A stretch of DNA of 64,000 bases from Arcicella sp. (GCA_025354645.1 JANXML010000158.1:19316-83315); one strand, 5' to 3'. Counted from the first letter of the stretch, positions 5,033-58,739 are shown. Made by a program: numbers and translations. Notes: a model not told the origin generated them from the letters alone.

Positions 5033-5067
5033 ACTGTTTACTGATAACTGTTCACTGATAACTGATC
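5033..5067. repeat. Heptamer tandem array (ACTGWTN x5)
   Basis: ACTGTTT ACTGATA ACTGTTC ACTGATA ACTGATC. Same unit family as the array inside mutS at 37378-37412. Confidence 0.8.
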
Positions 5068-5305
5068 AACTACCGTTTAATAAAAAAATATGAATTACGT
5101 TACAAAATTCAGAAAGAGTTGCGACTTTTTAGTATATTCACACCCCTTTTAAGAAACTTTAACGCCCTTACTTTCAGTAAAAGTTTCCTCCCAATTGCCT
5201 AACGCACATAAAATCAGACGATTAATTATTTATTTTAGCTATTATTAATAAAATCATAACCTTGATTTTATATCCCAATACCCCTAACCAAATAGGATTT
5301 TTAAA

Positions 5306-6400
5306 ATGAGTCTCAAAGCTGTCTTTACAAAACATACACTGGATTTTAAATTCGAGGCAGGAACGTCTCGGGGCGTACTCACGCATAAAGATAGTTACTT
5401 TGTTAAGATTTTTGACCACGAAAACCCTTCTGTCTTTGGTTTAGGAGAATGTTCCCCTTTAAAAGGATTAAGTATTGACGATCGTCCTGATTTTGATTTG
5501 CAATTACTAAGTATTTGCGAAAATTTTAATACACTCGATTTAGAAGTTTATCCTTGGAATTTGAATATAATCCTTGACCAAGTACTTGACAAAACTTTCC
5601 CATCCATCGTTTTTGCCTTCGAAACTGCCATGCTTGATTTAATGAATGGGGGTAAAAGAGTCGTTTTCAACAATGCTTTTGCCAAAGCCGAACGAACAAT
5701 TAATATCAATGGTTTGGTGTGGATGGGTAATCGAGATTTTATGCTGAAACAAATTGATGAGAAATTAGAATCTGGATATGATACGATAAAAATGAAGGTT
5801 GGGGCAATAGATTTCAAAAAAGAATGTGAAATTTTAGCTTACATCCGTGACCGCTATGATGAAAGTAAAATTACGCTCAGAGTGGATGCCAATGGTGCAT
5901 TTTCAATTCATGAGGTCTTATCTAAACTTCAAAAATTAGCTGAATTCAAACTTCATTCTATCGAACAACCCATCAAACAAGGTAATGAAGATTTGATGGC
6001 AGAACTTTGTCAGAATACACCCGTACCAATTGCTTTGGATGAAGAATTGATTGGTGTTCGTGAATATACCGATAAATATAAATTATTGAAGAAAATCATG
6101 CCTCAATATATCATTTTGAAACCTACGCTTGTTGGTGGTTTTCAGCAATGTAGAGAATGGATTGAGAATGCTAACCGCTTGAAAATTGGTTGGTGGATGA
6201 CATCCGCTTTGGAATCGAACGTTGGATTAAATGCGATTACTCAATTTACTGCCGAATTTAATAATATCATGCCCCAAGGACTTGGAACTGGACAATTATA
6301 CCACAACAATATCCCATCTCCGCTTGAAATTAGAAATGGGAAAATCTTTCACAATGCTCAAAATCCTTGGAATTTAGGAGTTTTGGAATTTTTGGTTTGA
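5306..6400 (+). CDS. menC: o-succinylbenzoate synthase (enolase superfamily)
   Basis: FEAGTSRG, KMKVG, RVDANG, SIEQP, ALDEEL, ILKP, TSALESNVGL. Confidence 0.9.
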   Translation: MSLKAVFTKHTLDFKFEAGTSRGVLTHKDSYFVKIFDHENPSVFGLGECSPLKGLSIDDRPDFDLQLLSICENFNTLDLEVYPWNLNIILDQVLDKTFPSIVFAFETAMLDLMNGGKRVVFNNAFAKAERTININGLVWMGNRDFMLKQIDEKLESGYDTIKMKVGAIDFKKECEILAYIRDRYDESKITLRVDANGAFSIHEVLSKLQKLAEFKLHSIEQPIKQGNEDLMAELCQNTPVPIALDEELIGVREYTDKYKLLKKIMPQYIILKPTLVGGFQQCREWIENANRLKIGWWMTSALESNVGLNAITQFTAEFNNIMPQGLGTGQLYHNNIPSPLEIRNGKIFHNAQNPWNLGVLEFLV

Positions 6401-47202: not shown

Positions 47203-48519
47203 TTAATACATTACAAAATTTAAAAGCATCACGCCTATAATTCCTACCACCGAAACTATACTTTCCATCATCGACCACGAGCGAATAGTGTCCTTGATAC
47301 TCAAATTAAAATACTCCTTAAATAGCCAAAATCCAGGGTCATTCACGTGCGAAAACATTAAACTTCCTGAGCCAATTGCCAGCACCATTAATTCAGGATT
47401 CGCACCCGTTTGTTGAACCATCGGGGCAATTATGCCTGCCGTAGTCAATCCCGCTACTGTGGCGGACCCAACGCATATACGTATAACAGCAGCAGCTAAC
47501 CACCCGACAATCAGAGGATTAAGTGGTAATGTTTTTAAAATATCCGCAATTTCATTACTAACGCCACTCTCAACCAACACTTGTTTCAATGCTCCTGCCC
47601 CAGCAATAATCAGTATTATCATTGACACATCTTTGACGGCATGGGTATAATAATCCATGATTTTTTTCATGGTAAATCCCATATTTATTCCGAGTGTATA
47701 AGTGGCAACGGTAACCGAAATTAACATTACAATTTGAGGGTCGCCGATAAATGAACTGATGGATTTCAGTGTCGGATTGTTTTTAGTGTAAACAGAAATT
47801 ATAGTTGTGAAAGCTAACAAAAATACGGGTAAAAGAGCCGTAAAAAAACTGTTAATAGTACTTGGTAAATGCTCTTCTGCAAGGGTTTCGTTTTGAAAAG
47901 TTTTTAAGGGATTTGAAGGGATTTTCTTTAAAGTAGTGGCAAAAAGCGGTCCACCGATGATAATGGCTGGAATGGCAATGGCAAATCCATATAATAAAGT
48001 AACACCCATATTGGCACTAAATTGAGCCACCAAAGCCGCTGGCGATGGATGAGGAGGCAAAAACCCGTGAGCGACTGACAACGAAGCCAACATGGGAAGC
48101 CCCACATAAACGGCAGGCAGTTTGTATTGATTAACAACTGAAAAAATCAAAGGAATCATCAACACAAAACCAACATTATAGAAGAGAGGAATTCCAATAA
48201 TAAAACCCGTACAGACCAATCCCCAGTGAATATTTTTCTCTCCAAAAATGCCCATCATTACCGATGCAATCCGCTGAGCTGCTCCACTTTCAGCCACTAT
48301 TTTACCTAACATTGCACCCAAAGCAATCACAATCACTAACGACCCCAACATATCTCCAATGCCTTTTTGGAGGGATTTACTGATATTTTCGATGGGAATT
48401 CCTGTGAAAATTCCTGCAATAATTGAAACGACAAGGAAAGCTAAGAATGGATTTATTTTTCCCCAGGTTATTAATAAAACTAAGAGTCCGATACAGATGG
48501 CAATGGTTAGTAGGGTCAT
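47203..48519 (-). CDS. gntP: Gluconate:H+ symporter (GntP family)
   Basis: HGFLPPHPSP, GSATVA, SHVNDPGFWLFKEYF. Confidence 0.93.
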   Translation of the reverse strand: MTLLTIAICIGLLVLLITWGKINPFLAFLVVSIIAGIFTGIPIENISKSLQKGIGDMLGSLVIVIALGAMLGKIVAESGAAQRIASVMMGIFGEKNIHWGLVCTGFIIGIPLFYNVGFVLMIPLIFSVVNQYKLPAVYVGLPMLASLSVAHGFLPPHPSPAALVAQFSANMGVTLLYGFAIAIPAIIIGGPLFATTLKKIPSNPLKTFQNETLAEEHLPSTINSFFTALLPVFLLAFTTIISVYTKNNPTLKSISSFIGDPQIVMLISVTVATYTLGINMGFTMKKIMDYYTHAVKDVSMIILIIAGAGALKQVLVESGVSNEIADILKTLPLNPLIVGWLAAAVIRICVGSATVAGLTTAGIIAPMVQQTGANPELMVLAIGSGSLMFSHVNDPGFWLFKEYFNLSIKDTIRSWSMMESIVSVVGIIGVMLLNFVMY

Positions 48520-48598
48520 TTTGTTTTGGTTTTGTTCCGCATAAACCCATAAAGACTCAAGGAAAATTTAGAATTAAAAGTGTCTAATTGAATCAATC

Positions 48599-50017
48599 TT
48601 ACAAATCTTTTAAAGCCTCATATACTTTGCTGAATTTCCTAAAATTTTCTTGATATATACGTTGATTGTCTTTATTCGGATAAAATATTTTTTCTTCAAT
48701 ATCGTGATGATTGGTTTGTAAGTTTAAAGCCATAAATCCAATAAGAACAGCTCCCCAAGCTGAACCTTCAACTTTTTGAGAGACTGCCACTTTCATTTGA
48801 AAAATATCAGCAGCAATCTGTAACCAAACATCATTTTTTGTAAATCCTCCACTCGCCATGATGATGATTTGTTCCCGTTCTTTTTGAATTGGAAGTAATA
48901 TTTCAGTTATACTCCAAAGTCCGAATAAAATTCCTTCGAGTGTTGCACGAATGAGATGGGCTTTTGTGTGATTTATGGTGATTCCGAGGAGAGTTCCTTT
49001 TACGGAGGCATCCCAAATTGGTGCCCTTTCTCCCAATAAATATGGCACAAATATTAATCCGTTGGAACCTGCAGGAGCATTTTGGGCTTGTAAAATTAAT
49101 TCATCAAACGATTCATTGGTATGCAAAATGGATTCTTTTAACCATTGCAATATGATGGCACCATTATTAACAGCTCCTAATGTAAGATACTGACTATCAA
49201 CGAGATGATAACACTGAGTTCTCATTTTTGCATCAATAAATGGTTTCTCAATCGGCAAGCGAACGGCTCCGCTTGTACCAATCGTCAAGGACATTCTACC
49301 TTTTTTCATAGCTCCTGTTCCCAAATTTGCCAAAGCTCCATCTCCCCCTCCCAAAATTAAAGTGTGATTTTTTGTTAGACTTTTAGCTGTATGAGTTGGC
49401 GAAACAACCGTAGAAAGTTTATCCCGTGAAATGCCTAAATGATTCAAAATTTGTTCATTCCAACATAAACATTCAATATTCAACATTCCAGTACCAGAAG
49501 CCAATGAAGAATCAATCACATATTCCCCTGTAAAATGATGCCAAATATACTCTTTCAAACTGATGAACTTATACGTTTTTGCGAAGATTTCGGGTTCATT
49601 TTCTTTCAACCAAAGAATTTTGGTCATCGGGCAAAATGTATGAATTGGAATACCTGTTTTTTCGTAAAATTGTTTGCCTAAATCACTTTCTCGCAGGTTT
49701 TGGGCAATTTCGGAAGCTCGATTATCAGCCCATAGAATTACATCAGTCAGCGGTTTTCCGTTAGTGTCAATAGCGATAAGACTTTGCATGGCGGCACTAA
49801 AACTGATGAATTGAGGCGTAATTTTATAGGTTAAATTTTCGATACAATCAACAACAGCCTTCAAAACAACGAATGGTTTTTGAATGCTCCAATCGGGTTT
49901 AGGATGGTGCATTTCGTAGCTAATACACTGATAATCAACCACTTTCCCTTCTTTGGTAAAAACCATAGCTTTCGTTGCGGTCGTCCCAATATCTATGCCT
50001 ATATAAAATTGATTCAT
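48599..50017 (-). CDS. gntK: Gluconokinase, FGGY family
   Basis: GIDIGTTATK, SAAMQS, TGIPIH, GDGALAN, TIGTSGA, PYLLGERAP, SGGF. In an operon with gnd and gntP. Confidence 0.88.
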   Translation of the reverse strand: MNQFYIGIDIGTTATKAMVFTKEGKVVDYQCISYEMHHPKPDWSIQKPFVVLKAVVDCIENLTYKITPQFISFSAAMQSLIAIDTNGKPLTDVILWADNRASEIAQNLRESDLGKQFYEKTGIPIHTFCPMTKILWLKENEPEIFAKTYKFISLKEYIWHHFTGEYVIDSSLASGTGMLNIECLCWNEQILNHLGISRDKLSTVVSPTHTAKSLTKNHTLILGGGDGALANLGTGAMKKGRMSLTIGTSGAVRLPIEKPFIDAKMRTQCYHLVDSQYLTLGAVNNGAIILQWLKESILHTNESFDELILQAQNAPAGSNGLIFVPYLLGERAPIWDASVKGTLLGITINHTKAHLIRATLEGILFGLWSITEILLPIQKEREQIIIMASGGFTKNDVWLQIAADIFQMKVAVSQKVEGSAWGAVLIGFMALNLQTNHHDIEEKIFYPNKDNQRIYQENFRKFSKVYEALKDL

Positions 50018-50029
50018 TGAGTAAATATT

Positions 50030-50200
50030 GGAACGCAGATGACGCAGATGCCTTCGGCAACGCAGATTTACGCAGATTTTAATTTTGTGTGTCCATAAAC
50101 TAATTTACAGTAAATCAAATTTTGAACAATTGGAAACCTAATAATTTTCAAAAAATTTGTGAAAATCTGCGTTGCGAAGCATCTGTGTCATCTGCGTGCC
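50030..50200. repeat. Paired inverted nonamer cassette (ACGCAGATN)
   Basis: ACGCAGAT at 50033, 50042, 50060 and 50070; ~40-bp near-perfect inverted arm at 50162-50200. Confidence 0.9.
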
Positions 50201-50211
50201 ATTTTACAGTT

Positions 50212-51108
50212 TTATTTTTTTTCAACCGCATGACCGCCAAATTCATTTCTTAACGCAGCCACTACTTTTCCTGAAAAAGTATCGGTCATTTGGGAACGGT
50301 AACGCATCATTACTGACATGGCAATCACGGGCGTTGGTACACCTAAATCTAATGCTGTTTCCAACGTCCATTTTCCTTCTCCAGATGAGTGCATGATGCC
50401 TTTTATGGTATCTAAATTGGGGTCTTTTGAAAAAGCATTTTCAGTTAATTCCATCAACCAACCTCTCACCACTGAGCCATGATTTAACATTTTGGCAGTT
50501 TTTTGAAAGTCAATATTAAATTCTGAATGTTCAAAAACCTCAAATCCTTCGGCAATTGATTGCATCATTCCGTATTCAATTCCGTTATGAACCATCTTTG
50601 TGAAATGACCACTTCCTGCTTCGCCTGTGTGCAAGTATCCGTCCACAACTGAAATATCTTTGAATACTTTTTCAACGTACTTAAACACTTCGTCGTCTCC
50701 ACCAACCATCGTGCAGGCACCTTTCAATGCTCCCGATGTTCCTCCCGAAGTTCCACAATCCAAAAAGTCTAATGATTTGGTTTTAAGATAGTTATACCGT
50801 TTTTTGGAATCTTTGTAATTTGAATTTCCCCCATCAATAATGATGTCATGAGGATTTAGAAAGGGTATTAATGATTCAATCACATCATCCACAATTTTAC
50901 CCGCAGGAACCATTAACCAAATCACTTTTCTTTTCGTTAATTGCAGGCATAAATCTTGAATAGAACGTGCAATTTTGATGTTTTCAGCGGCTATATTCTG
51001 AATAAAATCTGTATTGACATCATTAGCAATTACTTCATAACCATTTCTTTTAAAATTTAGGGCAAGATTAAAACCCATTTTACCCAATCCAATTATTCCT
51101 ATTTGCAT
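50212..51108 (-). CDS. gnd: 6-phosphogluconate dehydrogenase, decarboxylating, short (GntZ-like) form
   Basis: IGLGKMG, WLMVPAG, IDGGNS, DCGTSGG, KMVHNGIEYG, SGEGKW, RNEFGGHAV. Confidence 0.95.
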   Translation of the reverse strand: MQIGIIGLGKMGFNLALNFKRNGYEVIANDVNTDFIQNIAAENIKIARSIQDLCLQLTKRKVIWLMVPAGKIVDDVIESLIPFLNPHDIIIDGGNSNYKDSKKRYNYLKTKSLDFLDCGTSGGTSGALKGACTMVGGDDEVFKYVEKVFKDISVVDGYLHTGEAGSGHFTKMVHNGIEYGMMQSIAEGFEVFEHSEFNIDFQKTAKMLNHGSVVRGWLMELTENAFSKDPNLDTIKGIMHSSGEGKWTLETALDLGVPTPVIAMSVMMRYRSQMTDTFSGKVVAALRNEFGGHAVEKK

Positions 51109-51139
51109 TTTCTATTTTATTACTGATATTTTACTATTT

Positions 51140-51147
51140 CAAAGGTA
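51140..51147 (-). promoter_or_regulatory. -7 promoter element upstream of gnd
   Basis: TACCTTTG on the minus strand, 31 nt upstream of the ATG. Confidence 0.45.
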
Positions 51148-51151
51148 GTTC

Positions 51152-51197
51152 AACTTCCCGAAAGATTCCCATTACGAGCTCAAACTTTCGGGAAGTT
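51152..51197. repeat. REP-like palindrome, ACTTCCCGAAAG family
   Basis: AACTTCCCGAAAG-N20-CTTTCGGGAAGTT, perfect 13-bp arms. Confidence 0.7.
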
Positions 51198-51232
51198 ATT
51201 AAGAGTTATACCGCTTCTATAAAATACTATTT

Positions 51233-52771
51233 TTACTTATCCCACCAAACTCTTGTATCTAAATCATCCGCACCCATTCTGGTTATTGCTTCGCCAACAA
51301 GTTTACTATTAACCGATATTTCAGAATTTGGGTAGGTCAATCTTCTGATAAAATTCCCTTTGATGCCCTTACCTGGGAATGGATTAGGAGAAAGATTTGG
51401 AAATCCACTTCTTCGGAAATTAGCAAATGCTTCGGGTCCATTTAAGAAAGATGAAATCCAATATTGCGTATTTATTTGCTCTAATGCTGTGCTTGCATTG
51501 TAAGGATTTGCTTTCTGATAAGCATCAATTGCAGAGGCAGAAACCGCTGAATTGCCATCATATAAAGCCATTTGTTCCATGTGCAATCTTGTACCTTTAT
51601 TGAAAAATGTTTCCGCAGTAGTTCCAGTAATCCATCCTCTTTGTGTTGCCTCTGCTAATAATAATTGTGTTTGAGACGCTGTGACCAAGAACATTGGAGA
51701 AGTGGTCTTCGCCATTCTGGTTCTATCTAACTGACTATAATCATAAAAACTCGCCAATTTCGATTTGTTAACTTCCGAACTTATTGAAGCGTTATCGAAT
51801 CCGAAAGGCATTCCAATTTGTAGGGATGGGTCGCTGGTTGCACGAGCGTTTGTTTGGTCATTTCCAGATTTTGCTCCGACATAACGTAAGGCAATGGATT
51901 TTAATCTTGGGTCGTTGGTTTGTTGTAGATAATTCACAAATGGAGCTCCCAAATATATATTACTTGATTCTGTTGAATTCAATGTTGCACCAATACTGTT
52001 CAAATAATTGGCATCGTGTTTTATAAAAGCATTTTCAGAATTCAATTCCATCACTCCTGCTTGAAATGCTTTTTGGACTAATTGTTGAGCCTGTGCAGCA
52101 TCAATTTTTGTGAGTCTCATGCCTGCACGAAGCAAAACCGAATTACCAAATTTCTTCCAAAGATTTACATTTCCACCGTATAAAATATCCGCAGTTTCAA
52201 TCGTTTTTGAGGCATCCAATGCAGCAGTTGCCTCAGTTAATTCCTTGATAATTCCTGCATAAACTGCTTGCTGGGTATCATATTTCGGAAAAGTTAATTG
52301 ATCAGTATATCCTTTTCCAGCCTCTGAATAGGGAATATCACCGTAAGAGTCTGTTAAAACCAAAAACGCATAAGATTGCAATATGCGAGCCATGTTGAAT
52401 AGGTTACTCCGATTCGTAAGCGACTTAGTTGTATTAATCACATCATACGTATTGCGGATTACCGAACGATAATACCGTTGCCAATTTTGTGCAGTATTAT
52501 CTCTAATATCCTGATTAAAATTTGCACCCGCCAAAACCCCAGAATTAGGCGAAACCATTTGTTGAACAATGCCCATTTCATACAAAACTGTGCCCGTTGG
52601 AAACGATAAATTTACCGTTGCATTATTAAGCGTAAAGGCTGGATTGAGAGAAGTTGGAGCGGTTTTATTGACATTTAATTCATCAAAACCTTTGTCGCAA
52701 CTACTTGCCAAAAAGCAAAGCAAGAAGCTGATAATCAATGTTTTAGTAAAATATTTATACCTAAGTTTCAT
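51233..52771 (-). CDS. SusD/RagB family surface lipoprotein
   Basis: Lipobox ASSCDK; YGDIPYSEA, W.KFGNS..LR, EAFANFRRSGFP, TRVWWD. Confidence 0.93.
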   Translation of the reverse strand: MKLRYKYFTKTLIISFLLCFLASSCDKGFDELNVNKTAPTSLNPAFTLNNATVNLSFPTGTVLYEMGIVQQMVSPNSGVLAGANFNQDIRDNTAQNWQRYYRSVIRNTYDVINTTKSLTNRSNLFNMARILQSYAFLVLTDSYGDIPYSEAGKGYTDQLTFPKYDTQQAVYAGIIKELTEATAALDASKTIETADILYGGNVNLWKKFGNSVLLRAGMRLTKIDAAQAQQLVQKAFQAGVMELNSENAFIKHDANYLNSIGATLNSTESSNIYLGAPFVNYLQQTNDPRLKSIALRYVGAKSGNDQTNARATSDPSLQIGMPFGFDNASISSEVNKSKLASFYDYSQLDRTRMAKTTSPMFLVTASQTQLLLAEATQRGWITGTTAETFFNKGTRLHMEQMALYDGNSAVSASAIDAYQKANPYNASTALEQINTQYWISSFLNGPEAFANFRRSGFPNLSPNPFPGKGIKGNFIRRLTYPNSEISVNSKLVGEAITRMGADDLDTRVWWDK

Positions 52772-52849
52772 AAGAATTTCTGTTAAATTTTTTAAATAAT
52801 TTATTTGATTTGAAAACTATCAAAAGTATAATTTTATCAAATCTTTCCT

Positions 52850-52887
52850 AAAATATGCGTTGCGAATTATCTGAATCATTAGCGTAC
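52850..52887. repeat. Decayed solo copy of the nonamer cassette arm
   Basis: 30/38 identical to 50162-50199, same orientation, in the susC-susD spacer. Confidence 0.65.
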
Positions 52888-52892
52888 TAAAT

Positions 52893-55800
52893 TTAAAACT
52901 TAGCATTTAAGTTAAATCCAATACTGCGTGTTGTTGGCAAACCCGTTGATTCCATGCCGACAAGATTATCCGAAGAATATCCAAAAGAGTCTGGATCAAT
53001 ATTTGGAACCCATTTTTTAAGGATAAATACGTTGTTGGCTGTTATGCTTAATTTCAAAGATTTTAAAGGAAAACTTTTGGGTAAAAGTTTACTCAAATTG
53101 TACCCAGCCGTTATTTGGCGTAATTTCCAATATCCTCCGTCATAAACCACTGGTTCAACAATGGCTTGTGAACGCACAACCGACCAGTAATCCTGAACGG
53201 GAGCTTTAACGGTATTTGGCTCACCTTTATCATTAACACCAATACCTAAAACGCCTCCTTCACGCCCCTCTAACGTGATTTGATGCAAACCATGACGAAC
53301 TGCGTTGAAATTAGAACCCGAAAGCATCATGTTTCCTAATTTAAAATCAATCAAAAATGATAACGAAATGCCTTTATAATTGAAAGTGTTTGTGATTCCA
53401 CCAACCCATTTTGGCAAGGCACTTCCGTAAGAAATTAAGTCTGATGTTCTTAATGGAATTCCGTTTGCCCCAAAAATCATTTGCCCTTGAGCATTTCTTT
53501 TAAAGCCAAAACCATAGATTTGACCCATTTCTTGTCCAACAACTTGTCGGAGTTCGCCATTGAAAACGTGCGTTCCAGTGGTGATTCTTTCTCCTTCTTT
53601 ATCAGTTGTTAAACTCAGTACTTTTGTGATATTATATGACCCATTAACGGTTACGTTCCACTGAAAATTTTTCATTTTGACAGGCGAAAAACCAACTAAC
53701 ATTTCAAAACCATCATTTTGACTTACTCCACTATTGATTAATGTGTTTGTGAAACCCGAAGCGTCCGATACCTGTGCAGACACAATTTGATCTCTCGTAA
53801 CTTTGTGATAAGCCGCCATATCAAGTGAAACACGATTGTCGAATAATTTCAATTCCAGACCAACCTCTGATTCTGACGTTCTACTCGGTTTTAAATTAGC
53901 ATTGGGTAAGATAGTTCCCTGAGAACCTCCAACGGGTTGCAAAAGCCCAGAAGGGTTTGCGAGTAGATTGGAATTAATACCGTAAAATAAATTATTAGAA
54001 TATGGACTCACAGAACCATCCGTCCCCACTTCTGCATAAGCCAATCTTAGTTTTCCAAAACTTAGCCAAGTCGGAAGGTTTGAAATTGACTGAGAAAAAA
54101 CATAACTACTTGATATTGAAGGATATAAAATACTTCTATTATCTTTTGAAAGCGTTGAAAACCAATCATTTCTGGCAGTTGCATTGATGAATAATACGTT
54201 TTTATAAGAGAATTCAGCCGCTCCGTAAATTGAATTTACGGCATTTTCAGTAAGTCCGTAATAAGTATCTCTTACTCGTGAATACGTGACAGTATATAAA
54301 TCCCGTACTGGAAAATCAGTCGCTTGCGTTGAATTCACATCAGAACGTCTATACATTTGATTCCCTCCAACGTTCAAATCTATCCCAAAATTTCCAAAAG
54401 TTTTATTGGCTGTTATCAATATATCGGTATTAATTTCACGAAATCTGCGAGCTTCTTGTGTATAAACTCCATTCACAAAACCTGCTGGAGCGGGTCCGAG
54501 CGATGCTTGACCCGTTGGAAAATTGTTATAATCTTGATCACGAGACCAATAATCCTGACCGATTCGTCCTTGAACGGCAAGCCAATCCAGAAACTTATAT
54601 TTTAGGGATATATTTCCAAAAATTCTATCACGAATAATGTTTTGGAATTGTTGAGAAAGAGTAAAATATGGATTGGTTCTATTTTTGAATCTTGAATAAA
54701 CGTATTCGTCACCGTTGGCATCAAATTTCTTAGCTTCCAATAAATCCAAAGGCATTGAATTGGCTAAATTTGCAATGGTTGTTGGAATAGAGTTATCCTG
54801 ATTTGCAATATTGGGAGGATTCTTATTGGACTCGTTTGAATAGTTAATATTACCCGCAAAACTGAGTTTTTTATTAACTTCATAAGCAAAACCTAAATTG
54901 ATGGTTTTACGGTTGAAACTGTTATTTGGAACAATTCCTCGGTTGTCGGCATTTGCAAAAGAGAGAGTCAAACCACCTTTTTCGGAAGTAGATGAAAGGG
55001 AAATTGTATTCGTAAAATTAGTACCATTTCTATAAAATTTGCTAATTCTGTTATAAACTGGTTCGTAAGGAACCGTTACATTATCAAACAAAACCTGGGT
55101 CATTCCTGGTTGAAATTTTTCTCCAAACGACCATTGTCCCGACGTTGGATTGGCAGAAGTTGGACGAATTCCATTTTCTCCTTGCCCATAAATGTATTGA
55201 TAGTCTGTGAAATCTAAGGGAGAATCATTTGTAAAATTGGCATTGTAAGTAACGCCAATTCCGTTGGAATCTCCCTTGGTTTTTGTCGTGATGATTATTA
55301 CACCATTGCTGGCACGAGAACCGTAAAGTGCAGAAGCTGCCGCTCCTTTTAAAACCGACATAGATTCAATATCGTCTGGATTTATACTCGAAAGTCCATC
55401 GCCTCCATCAGAAGTATTCCCCCCCCCACGAACAACAATTGAATTATCCGAACCCGAATTTCCAGGGTTTGTTCCGAAGTTGGTATTATCAATCGGAACA
55501 CCGTTAACAACGATTAAAGGGCTATTTTGCCCTGAAATAGAACTTTGACCTCTGATTCTAATTTTGGAAGTTCCTGCTGGTCCCGTTCCCAAGGGAGAGA
55601 TATTCACCCCTGCAATTTGCCCTTGCAAGGCATTCATAAAGTTGGGCGTTCGGTTTTCGGTTAATGCTTCACGGGTGATGGTTGAAACTGAATAACCCAA
55701 CTTTTTAGCATCCTTTTTAATCCCCAAAGCCGTCACGACTACTTCTCCTAAATTCTGAACTTCATCTGAAAGTGAAATGTCAATTGTTGTTTTACTACCA

Positions 55801-56087
55801 ACCGTAACTTCTTTTGTTCCATAACCAATGGCACTAAAAATTAAAGTTGTATTTTTTCCAACGGATAATTTATAATTCCCTGTGGCATCGGTGCTTGTTC
55901 CCCGAGTGGTTCCCTTAATCTTAACGGCAACTCCTGCAATTCCACTGTTGGATTTATCAGAGATTGTACCTTTTAAAGTAATATCTTGGGCAAAAGTTGC
56001 GATGGAAAGAAGGGCAAAAACTAATCCTAAGCCTATTCTGGATAGCTTTTGAAATATTATAAAAGCATTTAGTCTAATTTTTTTCAT
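52893..56087 (-). CDS. SusC/RagA family TonB-dependent transporter
   Basis: N-terminal CarboxypepD-like domain, EVVVTALG, PLIVVNGVP, INPDDIES.SVLKG..A.ALYGSRA..GVIIITTK, C-terminal FNLNAKF. Confidence 0.96.
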   Translation of the reverse strand: MKKIRLNAFIIFQKLSRIGLGLVFALLSIATFAQDITLKGTISDKSNSGIAGVAVKIKGTTRGTSTDATGNYKLSVGKNTTLIFSAIGYGTKEVTVGSKTTIDISLSDEVQNLGEVVVTALGIKKDAKKLGYSVSTITREALTENRTPNFMNALQGQIAGVNISPLGTGPAGTSKIRIRGQSSISGQNSPLIVVNGVPIDNTNFGTNPGNSGSDNSIVVRGGGNTSDGGDGLSSINPDDIESMSVLKGAAASALYGSRASNGVIIITTKTKGDSNGIGVTYNANFTNDSPLDFTDYQYIYGQGENGIRPTSANPTSGQWSFGEKFQPGMTQVLFDNVTVPYEPVYNRISKFYRNGTNFTNTISLSSTSEKGGLTLSFANADNRGIVPNNSFNRKTINLGFAYEVNKKLSFAGNINYSNESNKNPPNIANQDNSIPTTIANLANSMPLDLLEAKKFDANGDEYVYSRFKNRTNPYFTLSQQFQNIIRDRIFGNISLKYKFLDWLAVQGRIGQDYWSRDQDYNNFPTGQASLGPAPAGFVNGVYTQEARRFREINTDILITANKTFGNFGIDLNVGGNQMYRRSDVNSTQATDFPVRDLYTVTYSRVRDTYYGLTENAVNSIYGAAEFSYKNVLFINATARNDWFSTLSKDNRSILYPSISSSYVFSQSISNLPTWLSFGKLRLAYAEVGTDGSVSPYSNNLFYGINSNLLANPSGLLQPVGGSQGTILPNANLKPSRTSESEVGLELKLFDNRVSLDMAAYHKVTRDQIVSAQVSDASGFTNTLINSGVSQNDGFEMLVGFSPVKMKNFQWNVTVNGSYNITKVLSLTTDKEGERITTGTHVFNGELRQVVGQEMGQIYGFGFKRNAQGQMIFGANGIPLRTSDLISYGSALPKWVGGITNTFNYKGISLSFLIDFKLGNMMLSGSNFNAVRHGLHQITLEGREGGVLGIGVNDKGEPNTVKAPVQDYWSVVRSQAIVEPVVYDGGYWKLRQITAGYNLSKLLPKSFPLKSLKLSITANNVFILKKWVPNIDPDSFGYSSDNLVGMESTGLPTTRSIGFNLNAKF

Positions 56088-56236
56088 AATTTTTACAATT
56101 GTTTTAATGAGTGAATATTTCGATGATGCAAAGTTTTATTATTATTCAAAGAAAAACTTTCATTTTTTTACAGCGGTGAATTTTGTAATATTTTTATGAA
56201 AAATTGACCTAATTTTACTTTCAGAATAAAAAACAA

Positions 56237-57115
56237 ATGAATCCATTTATACTGTACCAAGAAAAGTCAAAGGAATTAGCGACTTTTCCGTACATTATTG
56301 AGTTTGCCAATCATAAAATTCAACATATTCAACTTCATTCTCAGGAAATAAAACGCAGTAAAGGCATTAAAATTTGTTTTATTACAGAAGGAAAATTTGA
56401 CTGGAATATCGACGGACAGCAATATTTGCTTTATCCAAATGACACTTCTGTGACTTGTCCTTGGCAAATGATTGGTGGAAATAGAGGCGTTTTTGACATT
56501 GGTTCTTTGATGTGGATAACGATTAAACCACAAGTTTTTGAACAAAATGGCGAATTAATTTTGGGAGAGTGGAGTGGTATTTCTGAAACTGACCAACGAG
56601 TAATTGGTAAAATTTTAACCCTCAATAAAAAACCGATTTTAACCCGTTTGAAATCTTGTCAACAAATTTTCCAAAACCTGGAAATGGAATTTTATAACAA
56701 AGAATTAGGCTATCGAACTCGGATAAATCATTTAATTGATGAACTTTTAATTACGGCTATAAGACATTTAAGCAAGCAAGATAACCTCAGAAGGGACTTT
56801 CCGCAGACATTTTTAAAATTAGAACAAACCCTTAGAAATAATTTGTCTGACCCTTGGACGGTTGAAGAAATGGCAGGTTTAGTAGGCTTAGGAACAACCG
56901 CTTTCACGGAAAAAGTTAAGGCATTTTCAGGCTTTTCACCCTTAAATTATTTGATAAATATTAGAATTTCGGAAGCTATTAAATTACTCAATAGAAAAGA
57001 TTTGAGCTTGACAGACATTGCCTTAGAAACAGGGTTTTATTCATCCCAACATTTTTCCTCAACATTCAAAAAACTCACAGGTTACACGCCTCGGGAATTT
57101 AGGAAAAAAGAGTAG
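56237..57115 (+). CDS. AraC family transcriptional regulator
   Basis: C-terminal double HTH: WTVEEMA...IRISEAIKLL...LTDIALETGFYSSQHFSSTFKK..G.TP. Confidence 0.93.
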   Translation: MNPFILYQEKSKELATFPYIIEFANHKIQHIQLHSQEIKRSKGIKICFITEGKFDWNIDGQQYLLYPNDTSVTCPWQMIGGNRGVFDIGSLMWITIKPQVFEQNGELILGEWSGISETDQRVIGKILTLNKKPILTRLKSCQQIFQNLEMEFYNKELGYRTRINHLIDELLITAIRHLSKQDNLRRDFPQTFLKLEQTLRNNLSDPWTVEEMAGLVGLGTTAFTEKVKAFSGFSPLNYLINIRISEAIKLLNRKDLSLTDIALETGFYSSQHFSSTFKKLTGYTPREFRKKE

Positions 57116-57208
57116 GACAGGTTTCCAACCTGTTTTAAAAACTTTGAACTGACAGGTTAGAAACCTGTTTAAAAAACTTTGAACTGACAGGTTAGAAACC
57201 TGTCCTAC
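57112..57208. repeat. GTAG-type REP doublet with internal 35-bp tandem duplication
   Basis: GTAGGACAGGTTTCCAACCTGT ... ACAGGTTAGAAACCTGTCCTAC; 57134-57168 and 57169-57203 are 34/35 identical. Confidence 0.85.
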
Positions 57209-57218
57209 TTAAAAAAAT

Positions 57219-58739
57219 ATGGATTGTCTTCTTACTATCGACATCAATACATCAGCAGTCAAAATTCACGCATTTGATATGAATGGACGGGTAATTTGCT
57301 GGAAAAAAGGCTCGTACCCAACCTTTCACCCACAACCAGATTACAGCGAACAAGACCCCGAACAAATATTTATAACAACTTTATACATCCTTAAAAATCT
57401 CTTGAATGAGCATATTCATCCGAAAAAATTTAAGGTTAAAGCCATCTGTTTCAGTTCGTCCATGCACAGCGTTCTTCCAGTCGATAAAAGTGGCAATCCG
57501 CTTGGTAATGCCATTATTTGGGCGGATAATCGAGGTGTAAAAGAGGCTGAAATATTGAAGAAATTACCACAACATGAAAGCATTTTTCATACAACGGGAA
57601 CGCCTATTCACCCGATGTCCCCATTAATAAAAATCTCTTGGTTAAAAAATCATGATAAAGAAAGGTTTGCTCAAACCTATAAATTTATTTCCGTTAAAGA
57701 ATACGTGATTAAACAATTAACGGGTGAATATGTAATCGATCACAGTATTGCATCTTCGACAGGGCTTTTTGATATTCATAAACTCAAATGGCATCAAGAA
57801 TCCCTCAATTTTGCAGGAATTTCAACGGAAAATCTATCAGAACCAGTTTCGGTTTTTAATGATGATTTAATGCTAAAAAAAGAATATTGTGTAACCTTAG
57901 GCTTATCTCAGAAAACTAAATTAATTATTGGTTCAAGTGATGGCTGTTTGGCAACTCTGGGAGCAGGAATTATGGGCGAAGGAAAAGCAACCATTACCAT
58001 CGGTTCAAGTGGGGCTGTGAGGGTTGCAGGCAGACAAGTTTTAAGAGACGAAAAGCAACGGTTTTTCAATTATTTGTTAACAGATGGTTACTATATTTCG
58101 GGTGGTCCAACCAACAATGGAGGAGTAGTCTTTGAATGGTTTGCAAGACAATTTGGCGATTTTTCGGAGGGTTTAGAATTTGACGACGTTTTGAATGATT
58201 TGTTTAAAATAGCCTCTCAGGTAAAATTAGGAGCAGATGGACTATTATTTTTGCCTTATTTATTAGGAGAAAGGGCACCACTCTGGAACGCAAATGCTCG
58301 TGGAATGTATTTCGGATTGAATATTAATCACGAACAAAAACATTTTGTGCGAGCAACGTTGGAAGGCATTTTATTTGAAATATACAGCATCGGGAAAATT
58401 CTTGAAACGCATCGAAATTTTGAAGATATTTATATTAATGGTGCCTACGCTTCGTTGCCTTTGTGGACTCAAATACTGGCAGATATGTTCGGCAAAACTG
58501 TTCATATTAACGATAATCATGACAGTGTAGCAATGGGTGCTGCACTTTTAGGACTCACAAAATTAGGAATTTATAGTAATTTGGAAGAAGCAGCAACAAC
58601 GGTAAAATCAATTGAAACTTATTATCCGAACCTCAAAAATCATGATATTTACATGAAATATTTCAAGATTTTTGAAAGGTTAAGTCATAAACTTTCCGAA
58701 GATTTTGAGGAGATTGTCTTATTGCAACAAGGTTTTTAA
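57219..58739 (+). CDS. Second gluconokinase-like FGGY protein with atypical ATP-binding motifs
   Basis: TGTPIHPMSP, TIGSSGAVR, PYLLGERAP conserved. DIGT is DINT and SGG is NGA. Confidence 0.8.
   Translation: MDCLLTIDINTSAVKIHAFDMNGRVICWKKGSYPTFHPQPDYSEQDPEQIFITTLYILKNLLNEHIHPKKFKVKAICFSSSMHSVLPVDKSGNPLGNAIIWADNRGVKEAEILKKLPQHESIFHTTGTPIHPMSPLIKISWLKNHDKERFAQTYKFISVKEYVIKQLTGEYVIDHSIASSTGLFDIHKLKWHQESLNFAGISTENLSEPVSVFNDDLMLKKEYCVTLGLSQKTKLIIGSSDGCLATLGAGIMGEGKATITIGSSGAVRVAGRQVLRDEKQRFFNYLLTDGYYISGGPTNNGGVVFEWFARQFGDFSEGLEFDDVLNDLFKIASQVKLGADGLLFLPYLLGERAPLWNANARGMYFGLNINHEQKHFVRATLEGILFEIYSIGKILETHRNFEDIYINGAYASLPLWTQILADMFGKTVHINDNHDSVAMGAALLGLTKLGIYSNLEEAATTVKSIETYYPNLKNHDIYMKYFKIFERLSHKLSEDFEEIVLLQQGF

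Follow-up and report, generated by a model that had tools for sequence, protein, structure and literature searches.

A conserved SusC/SusD locus without carbohydrate-active enzymes in Arcicella: a candidate module for uptake and catabolism of gluconate or a similar sugar acid

The gntRKPZ operon of Bacillus subtilis brings together the GntR repressor, the FGGY-type kinase GntK, a GntP-family permease and an NAD+-preferring 6-phosphogluconate dehydrogenase (6PGDH), GntZ, which is a long enzyme of about 468 residues. The rus locus of Bacteroides thetaiotaomicron (BT2802-2809) encodes a regulator, two kinases, a SusC/SusD pair (SusCD) and a permease for the monomer ribose; the pair is thought to raise affinity without being essential, and the product of RusK1 is required for induction (10.1101/574913). 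The ong cluster of Pseudoalteromonas imports oxidised chitin products through TonB-dependent receptors (TBDRs) that are induced on the aldonic acid GlcNAc1A (PMC9537276). Here we describe a locus at positions 47203-58739 of a 64,000-nt stretch of Arcicella DNA (GCA_025354645.1 JANXML010000158.1:19316-83315; the window), in which susC and susD stand beside gnd, gntP and two genes for gluconokinase-like FGGY proteins. Judging from its sequence, we lean, with moderate confidence, towards an accessory module that takes up and breaks down gluconate or a free hexose acid much like it, in which SusCD probably captures a small sugar acid and not a piece of polysaccharide. Our literature search, which covered few subscription journals, turned up no account that ties a SusCD system to gluconate.

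The window lies on contig C83 of a 5.36-Mb assembly, 95% complete, of Arcicella, a freshwater genus of the Cytophagales. An earlier note on this stretch had placed susC, susD, gnd, a gntK-like gene and gntP on one strand, with an AraC-type gene and a second kinase gene divergent from them. Open reading frame (ORF) calling and family profile scans recovered every gene at exactly those positions, as follows.

47203-48519, minus strand: gntP, a GntP-family gluconate:H+ symporter, 438 aa
48599-50017, minus strand: FGGY1, a gluconokinase-like FGGY carbohydrate kinase with canonical ATP motifs, 472 aa
50212-51108, minus strand: gnd, a short-form 6PGDH, probably NAD+-preferring, 298 aa
51233-52771, minus strand: susD, a lipoprotein serving as the transporter's surface lid, with the lipobox Cys at residue 25, 512 aa
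52893-56087, minus strand: susC, a SusC/RagA-type TonB-dependent outer-membrane transporter, 1064 aa
56237-57115, plus strand: araC, an AraC-family regulator with HTH_18 and HTH_AraC domains, divergent from susC, 292 aa
57219-58739, plus strand: FGGY2, a second gluconokinase-like FGGY protein with altered nucleotide-binding loops, 506 aa

Family scans detected no glycoside hydrolase, lyase or esterase domain in any ORF between 43715 and 62854, leaving about 10 kb around the locus free of carbohydrate-active enzymes (CAZymes), as the earlier note had held. The flanking genes encode a thioredoxin-like protein, an MBL-fold protein, an S1/P1-like nuclease, and GNAT, GrpE and DnaJ proteins, and no gene for a hydrolase or a surface glycan-binding protein (SGBP) follows susD in the window. 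The combination that defines a canonical polysaccharide utilization locus, namely susC/susD with at least one glycoside hydrolase, polysaccharide lyase or carbohydrate esterase, is therefore absent from the window, and likewise from most orthologous loci. The earlier note had regarded such a locus as unusual, which in itself it is not, since about half of the susC/D loci in PULDB lack a CAZyme and have unknown substrates (PMC6499787).

The closest functional precedent is the rus system, where a SusC/SusD pair is part of a locus for a monomeric sugar that also encodes two paralogous kinases, a permease of the inner membrane and a regulator. Unlike the Arcicella locus, rus also encodes a glycoside hydrolase and a nucleoside hydrolase, whereas the Arcicella kinases are of the FGGY type rather than ribokinases, the regulator is of the AraC type, the presumed substrate is an acid and gnd belongs to the locus. 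Since the proteins of the two systems are not orthologous, the likeness is one of functional analogy only. With Bacillus gntRKPZ the locus shares the joint presence of an FGGY-type gluconokinase, the GntP family and an NAD+-type 6PGDH, but it has an AraC-type regulator and no GntR, the order gnd-kinase-permease, a short gnd product of about 300 residues, a second kinase, only a facultative link to gntP, and an outer-membrane SusCD in addition. Thus the Bacillus gntKPZ parallel drawn in the earlier note holds for the kinase type and the permease family and fails for the regulator and for the dehydrogenase, which has 298 residues; of the four hallmarks of a Bacillus-type gntRKPZ operon (GntR, FGGY-type GntK, GntP and long-form GntZ), GntR and long-form GntZ are missing. 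The ong cluster resembles the locus in joining TonB-dependent receptors for aldonic-acid sugars to an inner-membrane symporter and cytoplasmic catabolism (PMC9537276). It differs in that its receptors are classical TBDRs without a SusD lid, its substrates are oxidised chito-oligosaccharides, catabolism runs through deacetylation and deamination to 2-keto-3-deoxygluconate 6-phosphate, and the cluster itself includes the gene for OngA, a periplasmic hydrolase (PMC9537276).

The evidence that SusCD belongs to a sugar-acid pathway comes in the first place from gene neighbourhoods, whose conservation the earlier note had proposed to survey. Aligned SusD orthologues from five genomes were scanned against one genome per prokaryotic species, which gave at least 543 stretches encoding a relative; the best 80, 64-86% identical, were used. 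The counts given here rest on the 78 loci with a full-length SusD, to which the window proteins were mapped and in which all neighbouring ORFs were clustered. Identity of 64-86% is unusually high conservation for SusD, and these best relatives span two orders, the Cytophagales (Arcicella, Emticicia, Runella, Lacihabitans, Leadbetterella, Telluribacter, Dyadobacter and Aquirufa) and the Saprospirales (Haliscomenobacter, Lewinella and Saprospiraceae). SusC is 62-86% identical across 69 of the public loci. Sugar-acid genes were found near susD in 66 of the 78 loci, and the survey thus bears out the conservation of the arrangement. The steadiest partners of susCD are the genes for AraC (45/78) and FGGY2 (41/78), rather than gnd (30/78), FGGY1 (25/78) or gntP (5/78).

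At least four gene orders keep this linkage. One family of layouts is FGGY2-AraC / susC-susD-gnd-FGGY1, with gntP present or absent; variants lack FGGY1 in Runella and gnd in Haliscomenobacter. A congener and a Spirosomataceae metagenome-assembled genome (MAG) carry the one-strand order AraC-FGGY-gnd-susC-susD, in which gnd and susC are 21 nt apart and susC and susD overlap by 14 nt. The shuffling of gene order with the linkage kept, together with such tight operons, is strong evidence of shared function, and the neighbourhood, judged by its conservation in related genomes, is far beyond chance.

The same transporter is also joined to a second module that does not occur in the window. It comprises a Tat-signal acid-sugar dehydratase of the enolase superfamily (29/78), a Sec-signal RraA-like protein (27/78) and a BASS/PanS-like transporter (24/78). 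FGGY genes and/or gnd occur alone in 35 of the 78 loci, the exported-enzyme module alone in 17, and both in 13, as in Emticicia sp. SJ17W-69 (FGGY2-AraC / susC-susD-gnd-FGGY1-RraA-enolase). One further locus is decayed and retains only gntP, and 12 have neither module, three of these being on contigs of about 3 kb or shorter and a fourth on an 8-kb contig. On the SusD tree, the loci with kinase/gnd and those with exported enzymes are intermixed. The SusC and SusD of Arcicella have orthologues at 64-73% identity in the exported-enzyme loci of Lacihabitans, Leadbetterella, Telluribacter, Lewinella and Aquirufa; AraC, FGGY2 and the operator motif described below are often orthologous as well, and some loci carry both modules. 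In contrast to these loci, the window genome lacks the exported enzymes of this module and has only the cytoplasmic route through kinase and 6PGDH; no homologue of the enolase-type, RraA-like or BASS proteins was found in it.

Presence and absence within the genus point in the same direction. Among 25 Arcicella genomes (G000-G024: the window genome and 24 congeners), SusD and gnd occur together in 17 and are both missing from six, with SusD alone in one and gnd alone in one (Fisher p = 0.0003, not corrected for phylogeny). The congener G009 lacks the module entirely. The genome with SusD only, G021, contains a decaying locus (L118, G021:C256:17000-27000) in which susC, susD and gntP are intact and araC, gnd and FGGY1 persist only as frameshifted or truncated fragments. 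In the genome with gnd only, G006 (99% complete), susC and susD have been precisely deleted (L116, G006:C7:64000-75999, 5062-5748). G006 retains the candidate operator block upstream of susC, a ATGAAATAA stub of susC and the susD-gnd hairpin, and its AraC-side promoter region now faces gnd-FGGY1. It therefore represents a natural susCD deletion, useful for comparison.

A further line of evidence is the metabolic setting of the locus. A search for zwf (TIGR00871) detected the gene in none of the 25 Arcicella genomes, nine of which are at least 99% complete, and did detect it in control genomes; in two outgroup genomes zwf adjoins a long-form gnd. Without zwf, Arcicella has no oxidative pentose-phosphate entry from glucose-6-phosphate, and the gnd of the locus is the sole 6PGDH homologue in the window genome. 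A housekeeping role of gnd in the pentose-phosphate pathway was rejected on these two grounds. An Entner-Doudoroff route is not supported either, since no Edd reached its cut-off and the matches below it resemble IlvD-family paralogues, as judged by score range only. Phosphorylation of imported gluconate is therefore the only source of 6-phosphogluconate in this genus, so that the kinase and Gnd would form a self-contained accessory catabolic route. The proposal of the earlier note that SusCD serves a sugar-acid pathway is thus strongly supported by conserved neighbourhoods, by joint presence and absence and by the lack of another source of 6-phosphogluconate, while several of its details required correction.

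One such detail concerns gntP, which the earlier note had counted as part of the module. An orthologue with 77-94% identity is present in all 25 Arcicella genomes, where it often stands alone beside unrelated genes (integrase, MgtC, ExbBD or MgtE), and it adjoins the locus in only some species; in the window genome, the gntP query matched only itself. We therefore rejected gntP as a conserved member of the module. Its adjacency being lineage-specific, GntP is a plausible, though not dedicated, inner-membrane step. The protein belongs to the subfamily (TIGR00791 516 bits, cut-off 293) and stays under equivalog-level cut-offs (e.g. NF011560, 490 vs 744), so that its exact substrate is not fixed.

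The other gene products are likewise identified at the family level. Gnd scores 404 bits against TIGR00872 (cut-off 297) and 414 bits against NF007161, and its closest PDB entries are 4E21, 6VPB and 8IHE, the last being an NAD+-dependent Gnd2. The Asp of the ANDVN motif, which the earlier note had pointed out, is indeed present as residue 30 and aligns with the Asp of 8IHE, 4E21, 6VPB and 6XEQ, whereas the long-form enzyme 7CB0 has Asn-Arg at this position. By score, by a length of about 300 residues and by an Asp at the end of β2 in place of the Asn-Arg of NADP+ enzymes, Gnd falls among the short NAD+-type 6PGDHs, and it probably prefers NAD+. FGGY1 matches TIGR01314 (gntK_FGGY) best among the NCBIfam families, with 421.6 bits, which is under the 648.55 cut-off. 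Its best PDB match is the gluconate kinase 3GBT (324 bits; runner-up, 156 bits), and it carries the motifs GIDIGTT, GGGDGA and ASGGF. FGGY2 also finds its best family in TIGR01314, again under the cut-off (453.1 bits), and scores 292 bits against 3GBT. Both proteins are far nearer to 3GBT than to glycerol, xylulose or other solved FGGY kinases (at most 156 bits).

FGGY2 shares 37% identity with FGGY1, and the two are mutual closest paralogues in the window genome. FGGY2 and its orthologues retain the catalytic Asp, but their phosphate-1 loop reads TIDI[N/G/E]T[S/T], and their adenosine loop is xNG[ATKS][YF]A where the canonical form has SGGF. On these features, FGGY2 and its 41 orthologues can be classed as a distinct conserved subfamily with non-canonical nucleotide-binding loops. 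Its gene adjoins araC in every case. In Runella-type loci FGGY2 is the sole kinase beside gnd, which argues for genuine kinase activity; FGGY2 may be a catalyst, a sensor or both.

For the transporter, membership of the SusC/RagA family follows from TIGR04056 (619 bits, cut-off 368), the TIGR04057 signature (64 bits, cut-off 46) and the domains CarboxypepD_reg (PF13715), Plug (PF07715) and barrel (PF00593). SusD, whose gene starts 121 nt downstream of susC, belongs to the SusD/RagB family by PF12771 (278 bits), PF12741 (219 bits) and the lipobox LASSC with Cys25. Its best solved relative is 5J5U, the ligand of which is unknown. As a separate observation, susC contains a run of nine G on its coding strand at 55419-55427, encoding Gly-Gly-Gly within the invariant plug-loop motif SIGVRGGGNTSDG. 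At this site, mixed Gly codons occur in more than 70 susC orthologues, and the entire 5.36-Mb genome has only six G/C runs of nine or longer. The run could be a slippage-prone, phase-variable site, or it could be a chance or assembly feature.

Regulation of the locus was examined in the spacers between the genes, where the following elements were distinguished.

56126-56218, minus strand: araC-susC regulatory block of about 93 nt, near-invariant across the genus, a candidate AraC operator and susC promoter
51151-51198, minus strand: susD-gnd hairpin with a 14-bp stem, from the centroid fold of the spacer
51140-51147, minus strand: TACCTTTG, a -7-like box of the Bacteroidota type, lying about 32 nt before the ATG of gnd
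50018-50211, minus strand: gnd-FGGY1 spacer with species-specific inverted ACGCAGAT-type repeats, read directly

The araC-susC block contains the elements AAAAATATTACAA, TTCACCGC and GRAAGTTT, which recur at equal distance from susC in Emticicia, Runella, Lacihabitans and Haliscomenobacter. The motif spans five genera and is kept in loci carrying either catabolic module, suggesting one orthologous regulator and probably one common inducer. In the window, ATTCACCGC occurs exactly once, at 56173-56181, and a search of the window found no second copy of the operator elements before gnd, FGGY1 or gntP.

The spacer of 124 nt between susD and gnd folds at -26.2 kcal/mol (centroid -21.2), with z = -2.3. 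At the same position, most congeners have a hairpin with another stem (GACTCCATG...CATGGAGTC), followed by a T-rich run. The two stems at one position could reflect covariation or, equally, independent insertion of hairpin repeats of the genus. The TACCTTTG box is conserved in 8 of the 10 Arcicella loci aligned for it. Together, the hairpin and the box would fit attenuation after susD plus an internal promoter. Against this stand the frequency of the box motif, TAnnTTTG, which in this AT-rich window is that expected by chance (105 found vs 97.7 expected), and the recurrence of the hairpin repeats in many spacers of the genus, even between susC and susD. The separate -7 element that the earlier note had seen before gnd is present at 51140-51147, but its motif is no more frequent in the window than chance allows. 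A scan for sigma-70 promoters and terminators gave matches no more numerous than in shuffled sequence.

The other spacers are unconserved, and the one between gnd and FGGY1 measures 40-50 nt in relatives. Since spacers in relatives shrink to 40 nt between gnd and FGGY1 and to 14 nt between FGGY1 and gntP, a gnd-FGGY1-gntP transcript is favoured. Species-specific inverted or direct repeats, of the ACGCAGAT and ACAGGTTTCTAACCTGT types, occupy the gnd-FGGY1 spacer (50018-50211) as well as those between susC and susD (52772-52892) and between araC and FGGY2 (57116-57218). Congeners either lack these repeats or differ in them, and so they resemble mobile hairpin repeats more than regulatory sites.

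In the scheme that follows, we infer the SusCD ligand (free gluconate or an aldonate-ended oligomer), the kinase substrates, the AraC effector and the transcript structure. The SusD lid and the TonB-dependent SusC barrel would capture the acid at low external concentration and deliver it to the periplasm, and GntP would pass it through the inner membrane. Phosphorylation by FGGY1 and/or FGGY2, acting as gluconokinase, would then yield 6-phosphogluconate, which the short NAD+-type Gnd would convert to ribulose-5-phosphate, CO2 and NADH, feeding the non-oxidative pentose-phosphate pathway. The divergent AraC-type regulator would work at the one conserved operator block before susC. By analogy with RusK1 of the Bacteroides ribose system, the inducer is probably either produced or sensed by FGGY2, whose gene directly follows araC. 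Presumably, the hairpin after susD and the -7-like box before gnd set the ratio of transporter to enzyme transcripts. We propose only tentatively, as something we would not yet back, that this SusCD orthogroup, which occurs in hundreds of Cytophagales and Saprospirales from fresh water and soil, serves specifically to import free hexose acids such as gluconate with high affinity, with FGGY2 making 6-phosphogluconate as the AraC inducer.

Several observations weigh against a gluconate module. FGGY1 and FGGY2 both fail the curated TIGR01314 equivalog cut-off for gluconokinases. In G006, a complete relative, gnd and the two kinases persist although susCD is gone, and gntP does not co-vary with the module, being kept in six species that lack susCD, gnd and the FGGY kinases. 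With a hairpin and a -7-like box between susD and gnd and no second operator, co-regulation is only putative. An anion of 196 Da might pass the outer membrane with no need of TonB-dependent transport, and a few orthologous loci adjoin xylan-type CAZymes (GH10, GH43, GH39 and CE1-type esterases). Deletion of rusC/D in the rus system only lengthened the lag on ribose (10.1101/574913).

Among other explanations, the one to which we give most weight, while still holding it unlikely, is that SusCD imports short aldonate-ended oligosaccharides, for instance lactobionate, cellobionate or cello- or xylo-oligosaccharides oxidised at C1. These would be cut by glycosidases or phosphorylases whose genes lie elsewhere, and the released gluconate alone would enter the pathway encoded by the locus. 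Characterised SusCD pairs mostly take oligomers, SusD is of full size (512 aa) with solved relatives that bind glycans, and TonB-dependent receptors for oxidised chito-oligosaccharides are known (PMC9537276). To this may be added the orthologous loci next to GH10, GH43, GH39 and CE1-type esterases, yet the large majority of the 78 loci have no glycosidase or phosphorylase nearby, and dedicated cleavage genes usually stay near the loci that need them. Moreover, the most compact loci consist of AraC-FGGY-gnd-susC-susD alone, and no SGBP-like lipoprotein follows susD. We consider it more doubtful that SusCD is a broad importer, or one for other sugar acids (glucarate, galactarate, uronates or keto-aldonates), whose use is set by the downstream module, gluconate being here merely one, or not the main, transported species. 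The exported enolase/RraA/BASS module speaks for this, as it is joined to the same SusCD orthogroup, AraC, FGGY2 and operator motif in 30 loci, sometimes together with gnd and FGGY1, and the RraA-family protein FlDet turns 2-keto-3-deoxyglucarate into α-ketoglutarate semialdehyde (PMC8563752). The window genome, however, lacks homologues of that module, the only chemistry encoded at the locus is that of kinase and 6PGDH, which fits gluconate, and the conserved regulator and operator suggest one common inducer.

Least probable of all, in our view, is an adjacency without functional meaning, in which SusCD imports an unrelated glycan or other nutrient and neighbours a gluconate operon by chance. 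Such a coincidence would accommodate the hairpin and promoter-like box between susD and gnd, and half of susC/D loci have no informative neighbours (PMC6499787). It is hard to reconcile with a linkage that recurs in at least 48 loci, across two orders and several families, and that takes at least four gene orders, tight operons among them. G006 and G021 do show the two halves existing apart, but within the genus susCD and gnd are gained and lost together, and the locus of G021 is decaying rather than a stable alternative. We thus retain the module for gluconate or a very similar hexose acid as the reading that we favour.

Some further features of the orthologous loci deserve description. One or two exported enolase/RraA pairs and the BASS/PanS-like transporter follow the same SusCD orthogroup in loci L052-L058, L063-L066, L076, L087-L090 and L103-L105 (example, L087:11538-16220). 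By its signals and families, it apparently constitutes a periplasmic sugar-acid pathway, and our literature search found no published description of an exported enolase/RraA/SusCD pathway. In the Spirosomataceae MAG, a GMC-family oxidoreductase (L061:1183-2886) is encoded divergently from the AraC-FGGY-gnd-susC-susD operon; it may oxidise sugars and belong with the module in that genome. In five Emticicia loci (L037, L040, L041, L048 and L049), FGGY1 is followed by an exported metallophosphoesterase and a Tat-signal NHL/six-bladed β-propeller protein (example, L049:15091-16140), a 66% identical copy of which is present elsewhere in the window genome (C223:2507-3574). A lactonase-like role of this protein is conceivable.

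A SusCD locus that would scavenge a monomer or small acid is of a known kind, with rus as precedent, and the tie to gluconate would be new. The Arcicella locus offers a well-defined and widely conserved CAZyme-free susC/D case with a simple candidate ligand, and cultured carriers exist in Emticicia aquatilis, Runella limosa DSM 17973 and Arcicella aurantiaca DSM 22214, the last with the locus on NZ_QGGO01000020.1. Should the tentative proposal for the whole orthogroup hold, no SusC/SusD system would have been assigned to a monomeric sugar acid before this one, and a sizeable share of the CAZyme-free susC/D loci would be small-molecule scavengers of acids from other microbes, which could supply them, for example, when they oxidise glucose in the periplasm or cleave polysaccharides oxidatively. 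If the favoured reading is true, the function of SusCD would be widened from glycans, peptides and cofactors to monomeric sugar acids. The kinase/6PGDH module would further be linked, through a common transporter and regulator, to an uncharacterised exported enolase/RraA module. Finally, the locus would explain by what means oligotrophic freshwater Bacteroidota gather the gluconate that other organisms release.

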